Program-made: the position numbers and the translations under genes
Notes under the pieces: model-generated
What the model saw: only the letters and a program-made list of their open reading frames with translations
What the model was told of the DNA's origin: nothing
The model's database searches: none
In this document: one piece after another, positions 3,474-13,245 of the stretch
Layout: every line of letters starts with the position of its first letter
Position numbering within the stretch: position 1 is the stretch's first letter
IMG/VR virus record: IMGVR_UViG_2778261465_000005
Span: 1 to 14,613 of that record
Origin: a virus
Lineage: Duplodnaviria; Heunggongvirae; Uroviricota; Caudoviricetes
Direction: 5' to 3' (one strand)
DNA: 14,613 bases

Positions 3474-4489
3474 AGCTCCACCCCGTAAATCCAGTCAGTG
3501 TTCGTCAGGTCGAGTTTTGGTTTGCCGGCTGTCACGCCAGCCTGTTGCTTGTTACGGTTGATTTCGAGCTGGGTCCACTTGTCGCGTAGTTTGGCCGGAC
3601 TCAGCACGTTACCGGACCAGAAGTTGTCCTGGCAGGCCCAGCGGAACAGCACGCACATGTCGCGGTGGTTACGTCCGTCACGTTCACGCATCAGGCGGAT
3701 ATCGTTAGCCCACCCTGCAAAATTCGGTTTTCTGGCTGATGGCGCGATGGTCTTCACCATGTCAAACATCCACTCTGCGGCGGTCAGGTCTTCTGCTGTC
3801 CCCCACTTGCTGCCGCTCTGAATTGCAGCATCCGGTTTCACCACAGGAAGGTCGTTTTCTGGCTGGTCAGAGGATTCGCCAGAATTCTCGGACGAAAAAG
3901 GTTTTATATTGTCTTTTGTTAGTTTGTCTTTTGTGTTTACCTGATTCGGGTAAGCGCCTTTACCTGATTTGGGTAAATTTTTCTTACCTGATTCAGGTAA
4001 ATTTACCTCTTTCAGGTAAACTTTATTTTTCTTTCCTGATTCGGGTAATGTTGACCATTCACTGACCACATTATTGATGCCGATATTCCGCCCGCTCTGA
4101 ATAAAAATCCCACGCTTTACCAGAACACTTTTTGCAGCAGAACACTTGTGCGGCAATATCCCGGTCAATTCGGAAAGTTGCTCGTTGCTCACCCAATCCA
4201 GTTTTTTATTAAAGCCATATGTTTTGCGCATGACAGCCAGGAAGACCAGAAGCTGGTGCTGTGTTAATCCGGCCAGCATTACAGCTTCCAGCAACTCATT
4301 TGCAATGCGCGTATAACCATCATCGAGATCTGCCACGCGCGGCTCCTTTTGTGCCACATCCGGCACTGGAAAATTGAATATCTCAGCAGTGTTTGCCATA
4401 ATTCCTCCCGCAATGAGTGCGTTACGATTTGCACCTGAAAGTCGGTTCTGTTCCCGCAGACCGACTTTCGCCATTTCTGAATCTGTCAT
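3470..4489 (-). CDS. O: Replication initiator O-like protein: divergent N-terminal iteron-binding domain, lambda-like C-terminal domain
   Basis: N-terminal motifs ADLDDGYTRIANELLEA and RKTYGFNK are typical of lambdoid O proteins; the C-terminal ~90 aa (AEWMFDMVKTIAPSARKPNFAGWANDIRLMRERDGRNHRDMCVLFRWACQDNFWSG...) resembles lambda O; ori iterons lie inside the gene. Confidence 0.85.
   Translation of the reverse strand: MTDSEMAKVGLREQNRLSGANRNALIAGGIMANTAEIFNFPVPDVAQKEPRVADLDDGYTRIANELLEAVMLAGLTQHQLLVFLAVMRKTYGFNKKLDWVSNEQLSELTGILPHKCSAAKSVLVKRGIFIQSGRNIGINNVVSEWSTLPESGKKNKVYLKEVNLPESGKKNLPKSGKGAYPNQVNTKDKLTKDNIKPFSSENSGESSDQPENDLPVVKPDAAIQSGSKWGTAEDLTAAEWMFDMVKTIAPSARKPNFAGWANDIRLMRERDGRNHRDMCVLFRWACQDNFWSGNVLSPAKLRDKWTQLEINRNKQQAGVTAGKPKLDLTNTDWIYGVEL
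3937..4047. repeat. Replication origin iterons: five ~17-bp palindromic repeats (TTACCTGAtTCAGGTAA-like) next to an AT-rich tract (3900..3935), inside the O gene
   Basis: Repeats at 3937-3953, 3960-3976, 3984-4000, 4003-4019 and a degenerate copy at 4032-4047, spaced 19-29 bp; this matches the lambda ori architecture (iterons then AT-rich region within O). Confidence 0.7.
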
Positions 4490-5025
4490 ATTGCCCCCAG
4501 CATGGTGGTAACCATCGCCATTAATGGACCAGCCAGATCCGGGTCCACACGAAACATCGACACAATACCTTCACTCATTTCCTTCAGTTTCTGGTGGCGT
4601 GGTGCGTTGAGAATGACCGCCTGCTTTGCCTCACTGAGTTCCTTTTCCATTTCAGCCAACCGGGCCATGAAGCTATCCTGCTCAGCCAGGTGGCTGCGAT
4701 ATTCCAGCGGTAGTACCGCCAGAATTGCCGGGGTCAGTTCATGCACGTTATTTCGGTATTTTTCAGAATCGAATTTGTTATCGAGGAAGCGGAACAGCTT
4801 CTGGCGTGCACGACTGACATCATCAGGGAAATCGATGGTGCCGCCGCCCTGCTCCCGATACTCATTCACAATGAGTGCGGCAACAACATCCTGATTATCT
4901 GCAGCCGACCAGGCGCGAACGGCATCACGGATTTTTTCGTGGCCTGCCGCCTGTTTTGTTTGAGAACGATTTATCAGCGCAGCCGGGGTAATTCCGCTAG
5001 TCTGTTGGTATGTAATTGGTTGCAT
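4486..5025 (-). CDS. YdaT-like protein (occupies the cII position of the rightward early operon)
   Basis: Position between the cro-like gene and O; motifs NEYREQGGG and LTPAILAVLPLEYRSHL resemble Rac prophage YdaT as I remember it; AGGA Shine-Dalgarno; ATGA overlap with the O start. Confidence 0.5.
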   Translation of the reverse strand: MQPITYQQTSGITPAALINRSQTKQAAGHEKIRDAVRAWSAADNQDVVAALIVNEYREQGGGTIDFPDDVSRARQKLFRFLDNKFDSEKYRNNVHELTPAILAVLPLEYRSHLAEQDSFMARLAEMEKELSEAKQAVILNAPRHQKLKEMSEGIVSMFRVDPDLAGPLMAMVTTMLGAI

Positions 5026-5106
5026 AATTAATTCCTTTAGTTTGAATTGACTGTTAATCAGTCTGTTAAGTTGATTGCTTATTGTTAAAGAGCGTGAAAT
5101 GGAAAT

Positions 5107-5337
5107 TTAAGCTGCGTTCTTTTCGGTGTGTGGAAACAACTTCGGAAGGTCCGGGCGAATCTGGTATGCCTTCACAACTCCACCAGTAGCCGTAACAATG
5201 CTGCCGACATGTTCAGGGGATACCTTTGCTTTGTTGTGAAGCCACTTATAGACGGCCTGCTGTGAAACTTCGCAGGCATCGCCCAGTTTCTTTTGTGAAC
5301 CAACGATATTGATCGCTGTTTTGATTGCTGGGTTCAT
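5107..5337 (-). CDS. Cro-like small HTH regulator (YdaS-like family)
   Basis: 76-aa ORF divergent from the repressor, strong GGAGG Shine-Dalgarno; helix-turn-helix-like segment QKKLGDACEVSQQAVYKWL. Confidence 0.6.
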   Translation of the reverse strand: MNPAIKTAINIVGSQKKLGDACEVSQQAVYKWLHNKAKVSPEHVGSIVTATGGVVKAYQIRPDLPKLFPHTEKNAA

Positions 5338-5441
5338 AACAACCTCCGTGGTTAATCTGAATCAAGATTAAAACTATGGTTGTTTTTAGTCAACAACCAT
5401 TTTCGTTTGATGTAATAAAACCCTGGTTGTACATTTGGTCT
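5338..5441. promoter_or_regulatory. OR-like divergent control region between the cro-like and cI-like genes, with a 25-bp palindrome ATGGTTGTT-N7-AACAACCAT (5376..5400)
   Basis: Perfect 9-bp inverted arms seen directly; AACAAC/GGTTGT motifs recur here and downstream of the cassette terminator; no Shine-Dalgarno ahead of the repressor ATG. Confidence 0.5.
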
Positions 5442-6131
5442 ATGAAAACAACACTCTCAGAAAGACTTAAAGAAGCCAGATTAGCGCGAGGCCTTACACA
5501 AAAGGCGCTTGGGGATTTGGTCGGGGTTAGCCAAGCTGCTATTCAGAAAATCGAAACAGGGAAAGCTAACCAAACAACTAAAATCGTGGAGATCGCGAAC
5601 GCTTTGGGTGTGCGCGCAGAATGGTTATCTTCTGGCGTTGGAAATATGTCAGACAGTACAGTGCAACCAATACAATCAACTGTCAGCCATTCCAAATACT
5701 TTAAGATTGACGTTCTTGATATAGAAGTGAGTGCCGGGCCGGGAGTCATCAACCGTGAGTTTGTAGAAGTTCTACGCTCGGTTGAGTACTCGTTTGACGA
5801 TGCTCGTCACATGTTCGATGGTAGGAAGGCAGAAAATATCCGCATCATTAACGTGCGTGGTGACAGCATGTCAGGAACGATCGAACCAGGTGATCTGCTG
5901 TTCGTTGATATCACGGTTAAATCTTTCGACGGTGATGGTATCTATGCGTTTCTGTATGACGACACAGCCCATGTAAAGCGCCTGCAAATGATGAAGGATA
6001 AGCTGCTGGTTATCTCTGATAACAAAAGCTACTCACCGTGGGACCCGATCGAGAAAGATGAGATGAACCGGGTATTTATCTTCGGGAAAGTTATTGGGAG
6101 CATGCCGCAGACGTATAGGAAGCATGGATAG
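5442..6131 (+). CDS. Prophage repressor, cI-like (N-terminal XRE-type HTH plus C-terminal S24 LexA-like autopeptidase); not lambda immunity
   Basis: MKTTLSERLKEARLARGLTQKALGDLVGVSQAAIQKIE is an HTH; the C-terminus has GDSM (catalytic Ser) and a downstream VKRL (Lys) typical of S24 peptidases. The track ORF begins at 5376, but the HTH starts at the ATG at 5442. Confidence 0.85.
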   Translation: MKTTLSERLKEARLARGLTQKALGDLVGVSQAAIQKIETGKANQTTKIVEIANALGVRAEWLSSGVGNMSDSTVQPIQSTVSHSKYFKIDVLDIEVSAGPGVINREFVEVLRSVEYSFDDARHMFDGRKAENIRIINVRGDSMSGTIEPGDLLFVDITVKSFDGDGIYAFLYDDTAHVKRLQMMKDKLLVISDNKSYSPWDPIEKDEMNRVFIFGKVIGSMPQTYRKHG

Positions 6132-6199: not shown

Positions 6200-7273
6200 A
6201 TGGAGAACTTAATGGATACTTTAAAATATGAGAAATTCTCTGATTTTGATCACAATGACCCATTTTTTGACTCTTTAAAAAAAGATTATAAAGAGTTTCC
6301 TCTTTGGTTAGAAAAAAAAGCCAGAGAAGGAGAATCAGCTTATGTGCTCTATGATGACAAGCATAAAATCGAAGGTTTTATGTATCTAAAAGAAAATGAT
6401 GATGCAAATGACATTAATCCAGCGCTCCCACCAGGACGTCATCTAAAGATAGGAACATTCAAATTTGAATCTAAAGGCACCCTTCGCGGACAACGATTTC
6501 TAAAAAAAGCGTTTGACCATGCATTTTCATCAAAATCTGATGATATTTATGTTACTGTTTTCGACAAACACGTCCATCTAATAAAACTTTTCCAAACGTA
6601 CGGATTTTACATTCATGGTGAAAAAGAAACACATAACGGGAAAGAGTTTGTATATGCGAGGTCTTTGCATGAGCCTTATGGTGATATTTTATTAGATTAC
6701 CCTCGAATAATGACATCAAGGGCCAACAAATATTTACTGGCGATTTATCCCGAATATCACACTAGACTATTCCCTGATTCAAAACTTGTAAATGAATCAC
6801 CAGATATTGTCAAAGATATATCCCATGCTAACAGCATTCATAAAATTTACATATGTGGAATGCGTTCTGTGATGGGAATGAAAAGAGGAGATATCATTGT
6901 CATCTATAGAACCGGAGACAAAAAAGGGCCAGCTCGCTATCGTTCTGTAGCCAGTACATTATGTGTAGTTGAGAGCGTAAAAAATATTTCTGAATTTTTA
7001 AGCGAAGATAGTTTTGTAGACTATTGTATTCGTTTTAGCGTATTTTCTGAAGATGAACTCAGAAAAATCTATAAAGAACGTCGATACCCTTTCATTATAA
7101 GATTCACATACAATCTGTCTTTGCCAAAGAGACCCAATCGTGCTATTTTAATAGATCATGTGGGGCTAAATGGTTCGCGTGCATTCCGATGGAGTCACTT
7201 TAAACTCACAAATGAGCAGTTCTTAAAGATCATCGAGTTAGGCAAGATAAATGAAAGTTTTATTATCCATTAA
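6200..7273 (+). CDS. Hypothetical 357-aa protein, AT-rich cargo gene; tentatively an N-terminal GNAT-like fold with an unassigned C-terminal domain (possibly PUA-like)
   Basis: Directly downstream of the repressor on the same strand with no terminator between; markedly lower GC than its flanks. An alternative start at 6212 has a better Shine-Dalgarno (GGAGA). Domain guesses are from motif impression only. Confidence 0.6.
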   Translation: MENLMDTLKYEKFSDFDHNDPFFDSLKKDYKEFPLWLEKKAREGESAYVLYDDKHKIEGFMYLKENDDANDINPALPPGRHLKIGTFKFESKGTLRGQRFLKKAFDHAFSSKSDDIYVTVFDKHVHLIKLFQTYGFYIHGEKETHNGKEFVYARSLHEPYGDILLDYPRIMTSRANKYLLAIYPEYHTRLFPDSKLVNESPDIVKDISHANSIHKIYICGMRSVMGMKRGDIIVIYRTGDKKGPARYRSVASTLCVVESVKNISEFLSEDSFVDYCIRFSVFSEDELRKIYKERRYPFIIRFTYNLSLPKRPNRAILIDHVGLNGSRAFRWSHFKLTNEQFLKIIELGKINESFIIH

Positions 7274-7628
7274 GCCTGAGTTTGCAGAAAAAATATTGAA
7301 CGGAACAAAGCGGTTCGAGTTTCGTAAAGGTATATTCAAAAATCCGCAAATTAGCACCGTTGTTATTTATGCCACGATGCCATTAGGTAAAGTTGTTGGT
7401 CAATTCCGTATTGAATCAATACTAAGTGACGAACCGGAATCTCTTTGGAAAAAGACGGAAAAACACGCAGGTATTTCTAAGCAATTTTATGACTCATATT
7501 ATTCAGGTAGAGAAAAGGCCTACGCAATAAAAATTGGTGAAGTGGAAAGATATAAAGAACCAATTCCTATCTCTGCTCTAGGGAGTAATATTAAGCCACC
7601 ACAATCATATCTTTACCTACCTGCGTAA
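7251..7628 (+). CDS. ASCH-like (PUA-superfamily) small protein, 125 aa; second gene of the cargo cassette
   Basis: N-terminus MKVLLSIKPEFAEKILNGTKRFEFRK resembles the ASCH-domain signature; start overlaps the upstream gene by 23 nt; AT-rich. Confidence 0.55.
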   Translation: MKVLLSIKPEFAEKILNGTKRFEFRKGIFKNPQISTVVIYATMPLGKVVGQFRIESILSDEPESLWKKTEKHAGISKQFYDSYYSGREKAYAIKIGEVERYKEPIPISALGSNIKPPQSYLYLPA

Positions 7629-7632
7629 GAAT

Positions 7633-7660
7633 CCCGGCCACCGTGCCGGGTTTTCTTTTG
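7633..7660 (+). terminator. Intrinsic terminator closing the cI + cargo operon
   Basis: GC stem CCCGGC-(caccgt)-GCCGGG followed by TTTTCTTTT, starting 5 nt after the stop at 7626-7628. Confidence 0.65.
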
Positions 7661-7771
7661 TCCCCTCATCACACAAACCGTTCAAATAACCACCACGACA
7701 TCCCTTCAGTTATCGCTATGCGATGCAAGTCACAAAATAAATCCATCCTAAATACAACCAGTTATATCTAA

Positions 7772-7850
7772 AACAACCAGTAAAACAACTTTTGTTGTTG
7801 ACGATAAAACAACTATAGTTTTAAATAAATTCATCGCAACAACACAACGA
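7772..7850. promoter_or_regulatory. OL/pL-like candidate: repeated AACAAC/GTTGTT operator-like motifs including the palindrome AACAAC-tttt-GTTGTT (7784..7799) and a sigma70-like promoter (TTGACG 7798-7803, 18-nt spacer, TAAATA 7822-7827)
   Basis: Motifs read directly from the sequence; position upstream of the leftward early operon and sharing the repeat motif with OR supports an operator role. Confidence 0.35.
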
Positions 7851-8103
7851 TACGGCAACCACCTGATTCACCGTTGCGATGACCGCTTAGATCCGCAGCT
7901 TGAATTTCAGCAGGCTCCGGGGAGTGCGAGGGGTGAAGCGGACGCGTGAACGTCGGTGTGACCAGCTGAAATCAACTCAACACTTCATACCTCAGTCGCT
8001 TCAACGAGGCGGCTTAGTTATGACAACCGGCGGCCATCCACCGCCTGAATACGCGCAGAAGTCTATATATGTTCAGCAGCCCAGCTTACGGGCAGGAGTT
8101 TTT

Positions 8104-8310
8104 ATGGTTCATCAACATTACGGAACGCAGACCGTTAATCGCGGTGCGGTCATGCCAGGAATGCTGGTCAAACACAAAGATGGTACCTGGACTGCATCAG
8201 CTAATTTACGCGGACGGCTATATCTGCATCGCGGCATCGAGCGCACTTATACCCGTGATTTGCTCGTGGAAGTTTTTCTCGACGGACGCGGCAACGGCCT
8301 GAATCACTAA
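8104..8310 (+). CDS. Small protein (68 aa) at the kil position upstream of gam; possibly a Kil-type host division inhibitor
   Basis: ATG at 8104 with AGGAG about 7 nt upstream; the track ORF from 7900 uses a TTG start and is probably over-extended. Functional call is positional only. Confidence 0.4.
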
Positions 8311-8385
8311 TCCCCTTTCCTGTTTTCCTAATCAGCCTGGCATTTCGCGGGCGATATTTTCACAGCCATTTTCAGGAGGTCAGCC

Positions 8386-8682
8386 ATGAACGCTTATTAC
8401 ATTCAGGATCGTCTTGAGGCTCAGAGCTGGGCGCGTCACTACCAGCAGATCGCCCGTGAAGAGAAAGAGGCAGAACTGGCAGACGACATGGAAAAAGGCC
8501 TGCCCCAGCACCTGTTTGAATCGCTATGCATCGATCATTTGCAACGCCACGGGGCCAGCAAAAAAGCCATTACCCGTGCGTTTGATGACGATGTTGAGTT
8601 TCAGGAGCGCATGGCAGAACACATCCGGTACATGGTTGAAACCATTGCTCACCATCAGGTTGATATTGATTCAGAGGTATAA
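8386..8682 (+). CDS. gam: Gam (RecBCD inhibitor), short GamS form only (98 aa)
   Basis: [21 protein letters not shown]...[10 protein letters not shown] matches my recollection of lambda Gam from its internal Met; AGGAGG Shine-Dalgarno; in-frame stop at 8329 prevents a longer GamL form. Confidence 0.9.
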
Positions 8683-8687
8683 AACGG

Positions 8688-9473
8688 ATGAGTACAGCAC
8701 TCGCAACGCTGGCTGGGAAGCTGGCTGAACGTGTCGGCATGGATTCTGTCGACCCACAGGAACTGATCACCACTCTTCGCCAGACGGCATTTAAAGGTGA
8801 TGCCAGCGATGCGCAGTTCATCGCATTACTGATCGTTGCCAACCAGTACGGCCTTAATCCATGGACGAAAGAAATTTACGCCTTTCCTGATAAGCAGAAT
8901 GGCATCGTTCCGGTGGTGGGCGTTGATGGCTGGTCCCGCATCATCAATGAAAACCAGCAGTTTGATGGCATGGACTTTGAGCAGGACAATGAATCCTGTA
9001 CATGCCGGATTTACCGCAAGGACCGCAATCATCCGATCTGCGTTACCGAGTGGATGGATGAATGCCGCCGCGAACCATTCAAAACCCGCGAAGGCAGAGA
9101 AATTACGGGGCCGTGGCAGTCGCATCCCAAACGGATGTTACGGCATAAAGCCATGATTCAGTGTGCCCGTCTGGCCTTCGGATTTGCGGGTATCTATGAC
9201 AAGGATGAAGCCGAGCGCATTGTCGAAAATACCGCATACACTGCAGAACGTCAGCCGGAACGCGACATCACTCCGGTTAACGATGAAACCATGCAGGAGA
9301 TTAACACTCTGCTGATTGCCCTGGACAAAACATGGGATGACGACTTATTGCCGCTCTGTTCCCAGATATTTCGCCGCGACATTCGCGCATCGTCAGAACT
9401 GACACAGGCCGAAGCAGTGAAAGCTCTTGGATTCCTGAAACAGAAAGCCTCTGAACAGAAGGTGGCTGCATGA
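8688..9473 (+). CDS. bet: Bet (Red-beta single-strand annealing recombinase)
   Basis: 261-aa product [38 protein letters not shown]... matches my recollection of lambda Bet. Confidence 0.92.
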
Positions 9474-10150
9474 CACCGGACATTATCCTGCAGCGTACCG
9501 GGATCGACGTGAGAGCTGTCGAACAGGGGGATGATGCGTGGCACAAATTACGGCTCGGCGTCATCACCGCTTCAGAAGTTCACAACGTGATAGCAAAGCC
9601 CCGCTCAGGAAAGAAGTGGTCTGACATGAAAATGTCCTACTTCCACACCCTGCTGGCTGAGGTTTGCACCGGTGTGGCTCCGGAAGTTAATGCTAAAGCG
9701 CTGGCCTGGGGAAAACAGTACGAGAACGACGCCAGAACCCTGTTTGAGTTCACTTCCGGCGTAAATGTTATTGAATCCCCGATCATCTATCGCGACGAAA
9801 GTATGCGCACCGCCTGCTCTCCCGATGGTTTATGCAGTGACGGCAATGGCCTTGAGCTGAAATGCCCGTTTACCTCCCGGGATTTCATGAAGTTCCGGCT
9901 CGGTGGTTTCGAGGCCATAAAGTCGGCTTACATGGCCCAGGTGCAGTACAGCATGTGGGTGACGCGAAAAGATGCCTGGTACTTTGCCAACTATGACCCG
10001 CGTATGAAGCGTGAAGGCCTGCATTATGTCGTGGTTGAGCGGGATGAAAAGTACATGGCGAGTTTTGACGAGATGGTGCCGGAGTTCATCGAAAAAATGG
10101 ACGAGGCACTGGCTGAAATTGGTTTTGCATTTGGGGAGCAATGGCGATGA
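9470..10150 (+). CDS. exo: Exo (Red-alpha 5'-3' exonuclease)
   Basis: 226-aa product [40 protein letters not shown]... matches my recollection of lambda Exo; overlaps the bet stop. Confidence 0.92.
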
Positions 10151-10308
10151 AGCATCCTCACGATAATATCCGGGTAGGCACGATCACTTTCGTCTACTCC
10201 GTTACAAAGCGAGGCTGGGTATTTCCCGGCCTTTCTGTTATCCGAAATCCCCTGAAAGCACAGCGGCTGGCTGAGGAGATAAATAATAAACGGGGGCTGT
10301 ATGACTGA
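10147..10308 (+). CDS. Small hypothetical protein (53 aa), translationally coupled between exo and the methyltransferase
   Basis: ATG overlaps the exo stop (ATGA) and its TGA falls just inside the methyltransferase start; [53 protein letters not shown]. Below the ORF-track length cutoff. Confidence 0.4.
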
Positions 10309-10858
10309 TTTCACCGGAAGCAATACTCCTGCCGAACATCGCGACAGCTGGCGCACACCACCAGAGATTTTTGCTGCGCTTAATGCAGAGTTCGTTTTTC
10401 AACTTGATGCTGCCGCCAGCGAAAAAAACCGACTATGTCGGCTTTTTATCTCACAGGAGCAGAACACATTAACCACTTCATGGCCTGAAGCAATGGGATA
10501 TGCCTCTGGTTATGTCTGGTTGAATCCACCATACAGCAATATTTCCCCTTTTGTGAAAAAGGCAGCCACTGAAAACAAATTCAGTAGTGTGGGATGTGTA
10601 ATGTTATTGCCTGCTGACACATCTGTCGGATGGTTTCATGAAGCGATACAAACCGCCAGTGAGGTCAGATTCATCACGGCAGGACGACTGGCATTTATTA
10701 ACCCACTCACTGAGAAACCCGTCAGTGGAAATAATAAAGGCTCGATGCTCATTATCTGGCACCCATACCCCCGTACACACTGCCACTTTACGACCGTTGA
10801 TCGTGGAGAGTTGATGGCGTTCGGCTCAAGGATTCTTGCCCGTCGGGAGGCTGCATGA
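10301..10858 (+). CDS. Phage DNA N6-adenine methyltransferase (Dam-like orphan MTase)
   Basis: 185-aa product with the NPPY catalytic motif (VWLNPPYSNI), typical of amino-methyltransferases; size fits the phage N6-adenine MTase family. Confidence 0.75.
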   Translation: MTDFTGSNTPAEHRDSWRTPPEIFAALNAEFVFQLDAAASEKNRLCRLFISQEQNTLTTSWPEAMGYASGYVWLNPPYSNISPFVKKAATENKFSSVGCVMLLPADTSVGWFHEAIQTASEVRFITAGRLAFINPLTEKPVSGNNKGSMLIIWHPYPRTHCHFTTVDRGELMAFGSRILARREAA

Positions 10859-10938
10859 CAACCACGGAATGCATTTTTCTGGCAGCGGGCTTCATATTCT
10901 GTGTGCTTATGCTTGCCGACATGGGACTTGTTCAATGA
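10855..10938 (+). CDS. Possible 27-aa hydrophobic micro-protein (MTTTECIFLAAGFIFCVLMLADMGLVQ)
   Basis: ATGA overlaps at both ends (with the MTase stop and with the next ORF's ATG at 10935); a single hydrophobic helix. Could be a chance ORF. Confidence 0.25.
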   Translation: MTTTECIFLAAGFIFCVLMLADMGLVQ

Positions 10939-11150
10939 CACCTCAGCAGGAAAACGCCCTTCGCAGCATTGCCCGTCAGGCTAATTCTGAAATCAAAAAA
11001 GCCAGACAGCAGTTTCCGGATAAAAACGTCGATGACATTTGCCGTAGCGTACTAAAGAAGCACCGCGAAACGGTAACGCTGATGGGATTCACACCGACTC
11101 ATTTAAGCCTGGCGATCGGCATGTTAAACGGCGTCTTTAAGGAACGGTGA
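10935..11150 (+). CDS. Hypothetical protein (71 aa from the ATG at 10935; the track ORF from 10836 uses a TTG start)
   Basis: ORF in the leftward early operon; no family recognised. Confidence 0.45.
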   Translation: MTPQQENALRSIARQANSEIKKARQQFPDKNVDDICRSVLKKHRETVTLMGFTPTHLSLAIGMLNGVFKER

Positions 11151-11173
11151 ACATGAAAAGCAAAATCATCAGG

Positions 11174-11198
11174 GAGCTACAGGCTCCTTTTTTATTGT
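11174..11198 (+). terminator. Weak intrinsic-terminator-like hairpin (GGAGC-tacag-GCTCC followed by TTTTTT)
   Basis: Seen directly; short stem, so possibly an attenuator rather than a full stop; it sits inside a possible 29-aa ORF (11153..11242). Confidence 0.3.
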
Positions 11199-11248
11199 TC
11201 GCATTCATCCTCAAGCGTATTAACCAACAATTCAGGGATTAATGGAAG

Positions 11249-11467
11249 ATGGCAGACATCATTGATTCAGCATCAGAAATCGAAGAATTACAGCGCAATA
11301 CAGCAATAAAAATGCGTCGTCTGAACTACCAGACTGTATCCGCAACTCATTGTTGTGAGTGTGGCGATCCGATAGATGAGCGAAGACGCCTGGCTGTTCA
11401 GGGTTGTCGGACTTGTGCAAGTTGCCAGGAGGAGATCGAACTTAAGAACAAACAATGGGGACTGTGA
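11249..11467 (+). CDS. TraR/DksA-family C4 zinc-finger protein (72 aa)
   Basis: CxxC...CxxC pattern (CCECGDPIDERRRLAVQGCRTCASC) and size typical of phage TraR-like proteins. Confidence 0.65.
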   Translation: MADIIDSASEIEELQRNTAIKMRRLNYQTVSATHCCECGDPIDERRRLAVQGCRTCASCQEEIELKNKQWGL

Positions 11468-11514
11468 TGGCCTCAAAGCAGCAAATTTCAACATCGTCCA
11501 ACTGAGGTGTAAAA

Positions 11515-13169: not shown

Positions 13170-13215
13170 TGGTGCCGATAATAGGAGTCGAACCTACGAC
13201 CTTCGCATTACGAAT
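13170..13215. other. Inferred attR (prophage-host junction) overlapping the 3' part of thrW
   Basis: Integrase is adjacent to the tRNA 3' end; phages integrating in tRNA genes regenerate the 3' end from attP. Exact core limits cannot be set without the attL copy. Confidence 0.4.
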
Positions 13216-13245
13216 GCGCTGCTCTACCAACTGAGCTATATCGGC
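13170..13245 (-). tRNA. thrW: tRNA-Thr (anticodon CGU)
   Basis: Reverse complement reads GCCGATATAGCTCAGTTGGTAGAGCAGCGCATTCGTAATGCGAAGGTCGTAGGTTCGACTCCTATTATCGGCACCA: cloverleaf with anticodon CGT and encoded CCA. Confidence 0.9.

Follow-up and report, generated by a model that had tools for sequence, protein, structure and literature searches.

Lambdoid phages consist of interchangeable modules whose boundaries lie at gene ends, the pattern known as classical mosaicism. In lambda (NC_001416), the division inhibitor Kil is encoded immediately 5′ of gam, by a gene (47 aa) that overlaps both cIII and the coding region of GamL, the 138-aa form of Gam that reviews call a second isoform. The structure of the shorter form, GamS, with RecBCD has been solved, and Gam is a DNA-mimic dimer (PMC5218532). 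Another division inhibitor, KilR (73 aa, b1352), is the product of an early leftward-operon gene of the lambdoid Rac prophage of E. coli K-12; it causes filamentation or rounding via FtsZ (and MreB), its toxicity is set by its C-terminal tail, and AlphaFold3 predicts for it a β-rich core with short unstructured ends (PMC12482147). Lambda Kil acts through ZipA, KilR also affects MreB, and in the literature the two families are regarded as unrelated. In ftsA* ΔzipA cells, KilR is active and lambda Kil is not. Here we analysed a stretch of DNA of 14,613 nucleotides, referred to below as the window, in which a predicted inhibitor of the KilR type takes the place that Kil holds in lambda. We estimate at roughly 90% the probability that position 8304 of the window is a lambdoid module boundary, at which a KilR-type kil module meets a lambda-like Red module, and that the resulting arrangement, with GamS as the only form of Gam, is inherited and widespread.

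The window comprises the early-left and immunity region of a lambdoid prophage in E. coli, integrated at the tRNA-Thr gene that adjoins proA (13173-13245, minus strand; the only hit when the entire window was scanned against Rfam at E ≤ 1). Across the junction it is 100% identical to E. coli PSS-16 (NZ_AP027713, thrW prophage). The cro gene lies on the minus strand (5107-5337) and a cI-like S24 repressor gene on the plus strand ends at 6131. All the features that follow are on the plus strand: an overlapping pair encoding a 357-aa protein (6200-7273) and a 125-aa ASCH-domain protein (7251-7628), which correspond to GevT/GevA in PhiR47_2; a gene-free gap of 475 nt (7629-8103), in which the identical RefSeq genome has no annotated gene; the KilR-type kil (8104-8310, 68 aa); a kil-gam spacer of 75 nt (8311-8385); gam (8386-8682, 98 aa); bet (8688-9473) and exo (9470-10150), both present as ORFs and in the PGAP annotation; and, as annotated by PGAP, a DUF1317 gene (10147-10308) and an N6-adenine DNA methyltransferase gene without lambda counterpart (10301-10858). 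According to the ORF list and the annotation, xis and int lie 3′ of the methyltransferase gene. PGAP coordinates are given here as positions in the window, that is, as those of the annotated locus L085 minus 771.

The closest relatives of this locus, namely phages 4A7 (Bievrevirus, NC_049946), PhiR47_2 (PV340567), IdasGreatGrand and Turner and the PSS-16 prophage, are 94.7-100% identical to the window over 7600-9000 and differ from it only by point differences. The gene order in this group is that of the window, with cI, a GevT-like gene, ASCH/GevA, a gap of about 475 nt, a 68-aa Kil, a 98-aa Gam, Bet and Exo, and the same architecture with an annotated 98-aa Gam is found in 4A7, 4C10, PhiR47_2, IdasGreatGrand, Turner and others.

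Comparison with lambda places the boundary to within a few bases. Between window 7001-11500 and lambda 31000-36000, blastn returned a single HSP, at 8304-10303, with 97.55% identity over 2001 nt. It contains bet and exo and, as compared with lambda 31348-33330, extends from the gam leader through GamS, bet and exo to the DUF1317 gene, with the order and the position in the pL operon being alike in the two phages and a division inhibitor standing immediately 5′ of gam in both. To the left of 8304, nothing in these segments aligned with lambda by blastn, in agreement with a MAFFT alignment, and a search of 8104-8303 for continuous lambda-like similarity at lower stringency found none. The first lambda-like bases, TCACTAA (8304-8310), supply the final codons and the stop of the KilR-type ORF (..AAT CAC TAA) as well as those of lambda kil (..ATT CAC TAA). 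The lambda alignment, the start of the HSP and the start of matches to Stx phages together define the junction at 8302-8310 on the plus strand. The megablast matches to Stx phages, which carry a lambda-type kil, begin at the identical base, 8304 (query position 705); from there on the gam leader and Red genes of Stx2-converting phage 86 and other Stx phages are 98.6% identical to those of the window, whereas upstream these phages, unlike the window, keep N, cIII and the lambda-type kil region.

A preliminary description of this DNA had seen here a recombination breakpoint between modules of different origin, located at the stop of ORF 8104-8310, and both points are borne out by the sharp edge of the HSP and by the nucleotide alignment, which shows no continuous lambda homology through kil. 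Its estimate of about 8296 for the start of lambda-like sequence has to be moved to 8304 (or to 8302, with a single matching A included). At the other end, the lambda-like block has its edge at 10296-10308 (plus strand), the homology stopping at 10303, where the DUF1317 gene ends and the methyltransferase gene starts, so that both edges of the block lie no more than 7 nt from gene ends. The abrupt change from near-identity to no similarity at a gene boundary, by which module boundaries of lambdoid mosaics are recognised, is thus present at 8304 and at 10303. Chance is not at issue, given 97.6% identity over 2 kb on one side, no alignable similarity on the other and a switch within a few bases. 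When we say that the KilR-type gene replaces lambda kil, we refer to its position relative to lambda and imply no direction of exchange. As a further detail of the right edge, the methyltransferase gene (10301-10858) stands in place of lambda orf63/orf61.

The ORF at 8104-8310, which is preceded by the Shine-Dalgarno sequence GGGCAGGAG, was rightly set apart in the preliminary description as a small gene different from lambda kil. Its 68-aa product is not an unknown; it is a homologue of KilR, and PGAP has already named it as a 'phage encoded cell division inhibitor protein' (WP_000233576.1, exactly 8104-8310). Its entire length (residues 1-68) is covered by a match to PHROG 294, 'Kil protein for bacterial septation inhibition' (E = 1.3e-37), and BLASTP aligns the protein to Rac KilR from KilR residue 1 with 36% identity over 61 aa (E = 9e-13). 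The match to NCBIfam NF008465 (PRK11354, FtsZ inhibitor; E = 1.8e-17) reaches 63.1 bits, under the curated cutoff of 92, and the protein is a homologue outside the narrow subfamily of Rac KilR. The two proteins also differ in their tails, that of the window (DGRGNGLNH, 9 residues) being shorter than and divergent from that of Rac KilR (GRDGLPVKAESW, 12 residues). Homologues of 67-68 aa that share the start methionine occur in Klebsiella, Citrobacter, Enterobacter, Shimwellia and other Enterobacteriaceae, and the C-terminus ..G(N/x)GL(S/N)H is kept across them. The AF2 model is all-β, with six strands within residues 8-59 and ends that are mostly coil (pLDDT 80.7, only one of five models being confident), and may thus resemble the predicted fold of KilR; in BFVD, the best fold match comes from a Pantoea phage protein of 73 aa (TM 0.79, 35% identity). 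Taken together, we infer that the 68-aa protein is a predicted FtsZ/cell division inhibitor of the KilR family and a functional analogue of lambda Kil. On the side of domain databases, Pfam PF27398.1 is precomputed on all database homologues and a Pfam-A scan of 8104-8310 gave no family, the entry being presumably newer than the release that we scanned.

One could argue that a single ancestral kil has diverged fast on the two sides, instead of having been replaced by an unrelated module, since both ORFs occupy the same position, have the same assigned function and end in CAC TAA. We consider this hardly credible. BLASTP gives no alignment between the window protein and lambda Kil at E ≤ 100, and the two differ in length (68 versus 47 aa); lambda kil overlaps cIII and GamL, whereas the window gene overlaps neither; the window protein has its similarity to Rac KilR, from a family that the literature sets apart from lambda Kil; and identity passes from none to 97.6% within about 3 nt, where the lambda-like block begins. 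As for the shared CAC TAA, it could be a coincidence and not a recombination substrate, as KilR members of other genera also end in ..SH*.

The frame of the 68-aa ORF is open from 7900 to 8310, which would allow a longer, fused or different protein of 96-136 aa, containing an arginine-rich 'KRTRERR', to start at ATG 8020, GTG 7924 or TTG 7900. In keeping with this, PhiR47_2 annotates a 128-aa 'Kil', and many database calls are of 83-116 aa. Among 23 unique relatives, however, 8 carry a stop just 5′ of SLQRGG and 1 is frame-shifted between 8020 and 8104, with the 68-aa part intact in all of them. Since relatives do not maintain the extension at 7900-8103 as an ORF, we take 8104 as the start, which is also the start implied by the uniform length and common methionine of the homologues in other genera, by the alignment to Rac KilR from residue 1, by the 68-aa calls of PGAP and RefSeq, and by the good Shine-Dalgarno sequence of ATG 8104. 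A longer upstream gene is therefore very unlikely. Separately, two IMG/VR loci (L032 and L015) have a breakpoint inside their KilR-type kil, equivalent to about 8154; their similarity to the window is confined to the last ∼157 nt, the N-terminal half being unrelated, and they are hybrid or disrupted alleles.

On the right side of the boundary, gam starts at ATG 8386, behind the Shine-Dalgarno sequence AGGAGG (8374-8379) at a spacing of 6 nt. In line with what the preliminary description had read from this gene, it encodes exactly the 98-aa GamS: the product is identical to lambda GamS in 96 of 98 residues (the differences being I22/L and A61/S), matches Pfam PF06064 from end to end (residues 1-98 against positions 1-98 of 98; E = 3.4e-65, 216.8 bits, cutoff 25) and is labelled by PGAP as a 98-aa 'host-nuclease inhibitor Gam family protein'. 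Given this 98% identity to a structurally solved protein, the Gam of the window probably binds and inhibits RecBCD. Between 8304 and 8385, an 82-nt leader, the window differs from lambda at only five places (window/lambda): 8311 T/C, 8338 T/C, 8367 C/T, an extra T at 8369 (a TTTT run in the window versus TTT in lambda) and 8379 G/T, the last of which turns the lambda Shine-Dalgarno AGGAGT into AGGAGG. Within this leader, the spacer at 8311-8385 has a lambda counterpart that encodes GamL residues 16-40, and in the window it is non-coding.

GamL, which would need a start about 40 codons upstream and an open frame, cannot be encoded by the window. The frame of gam is closed by an in-frame TAA at 8329-8331, and none of the 18 in-frame codons between this stop and ATG 8386 is ATG, GTG or TTG. 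The reading frame used in lambda for the N-terminus of GamL is open in the window at 8259-8417, contains no start codon there and enters gam out of frame. The preliminary description had attributed the lack of GamL to the stop at 8329 and to a 1-nt difference next to the Shine-Dalgarno sequence. Both features exist, with an extra T at 8369 and an altered base in the Shine-Dalgarno sequence itself at 8379, and an alternative start that would restore a GamL-like product is found in neither upstream frame; the stop and the extra T are nevertheless secondary. The GamL ATG lies inside lambda kil, which is absent from the window, and this is the main reason why GamL is impossible here.

To see how gam is arranged in relatives, we used IMG/VR loci with a GamS identical to that of the window, restricted to the best 80 of at least 589 matches and thus biased toward close relatives. 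Within this sample, a lambda-type kil with an intact 40-codon GamL extension occurs at 38 loci and a lambda-type kil with a frame-shifted extension at 12 (9 with the same extra T as the window, CAGCCATTTTCAGG, and 3 with a 1-nt deletion); a KilR-type kil directly adjoins gam at 22 loci and is followed by an insert of about 450 nt at 7; one locus is unclassified. GamL is hence not encodable at 42 of these best 80 of at least 589 loci, 12 of the 42 retaining a lambda-type kil. The Shine-Dalgarno sequence AGGAGG, with G at 8379, is common to just two of the best 80 of at least 589. The insert of the seven loci (e.g., L006 2053-2500) stands in place of the lambda-like spacer as far as about 20 nt from the gam ATG and contains an ORF of 104 aa on the opposite strand (2057-2371).

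The frame-shifted loci bring up another explanation, in which GamL has been lost by decay, through inactivating mutations (the extra T and the TAA at 8329) in a degenerating prophage, and the junction is irrelevant to its loss. The extra T and the 1-nt deletions do break the GamL frame at loci with lambda-type kil, and Stx2 phage 86, whose GamL frame is also broken, is annotated with a split gam of 50 aa and 98 aa. Yet in the window GamL would be impossible regardless of the extra T, its start codon being located in the absent lambda kil, and the KilR-type loci L039 and L053, which are without the extra T, still have no start codon upstream of gam. Moreover, GamS, bet and exo remain intact at 97.6% identity to lambda, the Shine-Dalgarno sequence has been strengthened to AGGAGG and free-living phages are in the same state. 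We therefore regard loss by decay as improbable and hold to the module boundary as the explanation for the GamS-only state.

With a 171-nt probe (8230-8400) and a coverage of at least 80%, the KilR-gam junction was found in 2167 of 5426 complete E. coli genomes, and an equivalent probe for the lambda-type junction in 1390 of 5426; the two probes share only 57% of their length, so that a coverage of at least 80% requires the specific kil allele. The junction is commoner in complete E. coli genomes than the lambda arrangement; it is inherited and not an event particular to this one genome. The KilR-gam arrangement is ordinary and already known: more than one in three complete E. coli genomes have it, and it is annotated as such.

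The downstream neighbors of KilR-type kil vary. Among 21 species-representative genomes, gam lies at most 1.5 kb downstream of a KilR-type kil in only 4, and it is directly adjacent in 1 of those 4, an E. coli-like contig. In HK225 a KilR-type kil precedes a RecE module, in Salmonella phage SEN34 it is followed by a different spacer of 81 nt and then gam, and in Rac kilR is followed by ydaE/racC/recE/recT, whereas the window has gam/bet/exo at this place. With such varied neighbors, KilR-type kil behaves as an independent module.

The following picture best accounts for these observations. To the right of 8304 stands a Red module of 2.0 kb (gam leader, gam, bet, exo and the DUF1317 gene) that is nearly lambda's, and to the left a segment with the pL region, a leader of about 270 nt and a KilR-family kil, in place of the lambda segment from N to cIII-kil. 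An exchange point exactly at the gene end is what one would expect if recombinants survive only with both flanking genes intact; recombination within the conserved spacer would be an alternative route to the same outcome. Translation of gam would start only at ATG 8386, behind the consensus AGGAGG, to yield a 98-aa GamS predicted from its sequence to inhibit RecBCD, and the 68-aa protein would, by its homology to KilR, supply a transient division block by a KilR-like and not a lambda-Kil-like route.

What this means for GamL is a more tentative matter. GamL may be a lineage-specific by-product of the overlap with lambda-type kil and not a conserved second isoform, a reading that we place slightly short of even odds. 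It is based on the 42 of 80 loci without GamL, on the 12 among them in which a lambda-type kil is accompanied by a frame-shift, on a GamS that is invariant (the loci having been chosen by GamS identity), and on the KilR-type, GamS-only arrangement being the commoner one in E. coli. In a weaker variant of this reading, exchange would favour the conserved 75-nt spacer together with the shared CAC TAA, or the spacer would contain a regulatory or terminator element that is retained for reasons other than coding. GamL is still used in some constructs, yet about half of the close relatives sampled (the best 80 of at least 589) cannot encode it, as would be expected if GamS is the form that matters. 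The locus itself is textbook lambdoid mosaicism: one position is held by either of two non-homologous division inhibitors, and the exchange lies exactly at a stop codon. Beyond this, it has little import other than for annotation, where a 98-aa Gam and a KilR-family division inhibitor are the appropriate calls, as RefSeq already has them.

The DNA upstream of kil differs from lambda in content as well, N, sieB, ral, ea10 and cIII all being absent from the interval between pL and kil. At 7778-7830 (plus strand) lie probable oL operators and a probable pL promoter region, with operator-like repeats at 7781-7796 and 7805-7820; positions 7806-7824 show 95% complementarity to a stretch between cro and cI (5368-5386). 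There is no N-like gene between the operator region (7778-7824) and kil, so that the leftward operon has kil as its first gene, behind a leader of about 270 nt. We considered the arginine-rich extension at 7900-8103 ('GVKRTRERR') as an N-like arginine-rich motif or as part of a longer Kil and rejected it, because 9 of the 23 unique relatives do not keep this frame uninterrupted. On the rightward transcript just past cro (5050-5116, minus strand), a perfect boxA (CGCTCTTTAACAA) is followed by the hairpin GACTG-ATTAA-CAGTC, with a stem of 5 bp and a loop of 5 nt, in a nutR-like arrangement. Two short matches, CGCAGCTTGAATTTC (7894-7908) and AATCAACTCAACA (7970-7982), are common to the leftward and rightward leaders and collinear in them. 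RNA folding of the leader between pL and kil is not significant (z = −0.5).

About 60-120 nt 5′ of kil, on the plus strand, lies a 62-nt element (7984-8045) that is 96.8% identical to unannotated DNA 5′ of the KilR-type kil of HK225 and 85% identical to DNA just past N of phi80. It can form two adjacent hairpins, one with a 9-bp stem (AGUCGCUUC/GAGGCGGCU) and one with GGCGG/CCGCC. In a 22-locus alignment it occurs only in the window, in HK225 and in an Enterobacteriaceae MAG (L107) and is missing at the other KilR-type loci, the sequences being too few for covariation analysis. It may be a regulatory element of the 5′ UTR. In Rac, an sRNA, KilS, is annotated 5′ of kilR; the region upstream of Rac kilS/kilR gives no convincing alignment with the upstream DNA of the window.

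The kil-gam spacer shows no significant RNA folding (z = +1.14). It contains a weak terminator-like hairpin (8335-8352) followed by a T-run (to 8362), GCCTGGCATTTCGCGGGC GATATTTTCA, for which the lambda C at 8338 (T in the window) gives a better stem. The tL2 terminator cluster of lambda lies between bet and ral; the lambda record J02459 carries no terminator features, and a literature search for tL2 coordinates returned nothing usable.

Outside the kil-gam region, the gene pair at 6200-7628 has a low GC content (32-37%) and lies directly 3′ of cI, the position of rexAB in lambda. The 357-aa protein belongs to PHROG 6345, its N-terminal part resembles the acetyltransferase PHROG 13728, and it has no Pfam match; PV340567 (PhiR47_2) labels the pair 'GevT toxin / GevA antitoxin', and a literature search under those names found no relevant paper. 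A terminator-like hairpin (7633-7650) lies 3′ of the ASCH gene. Relatives without a GevT/GevA-like pair match the window from about 7626-7633 on, so that another module boundary lies there. Finally, at the position of lambda cII, the window encodes a protein of 179 aa (4486-5025, minus strand), called 'toxin YdaT domain-containing protein' by PGAP and 'cII' in PhiR47_2.
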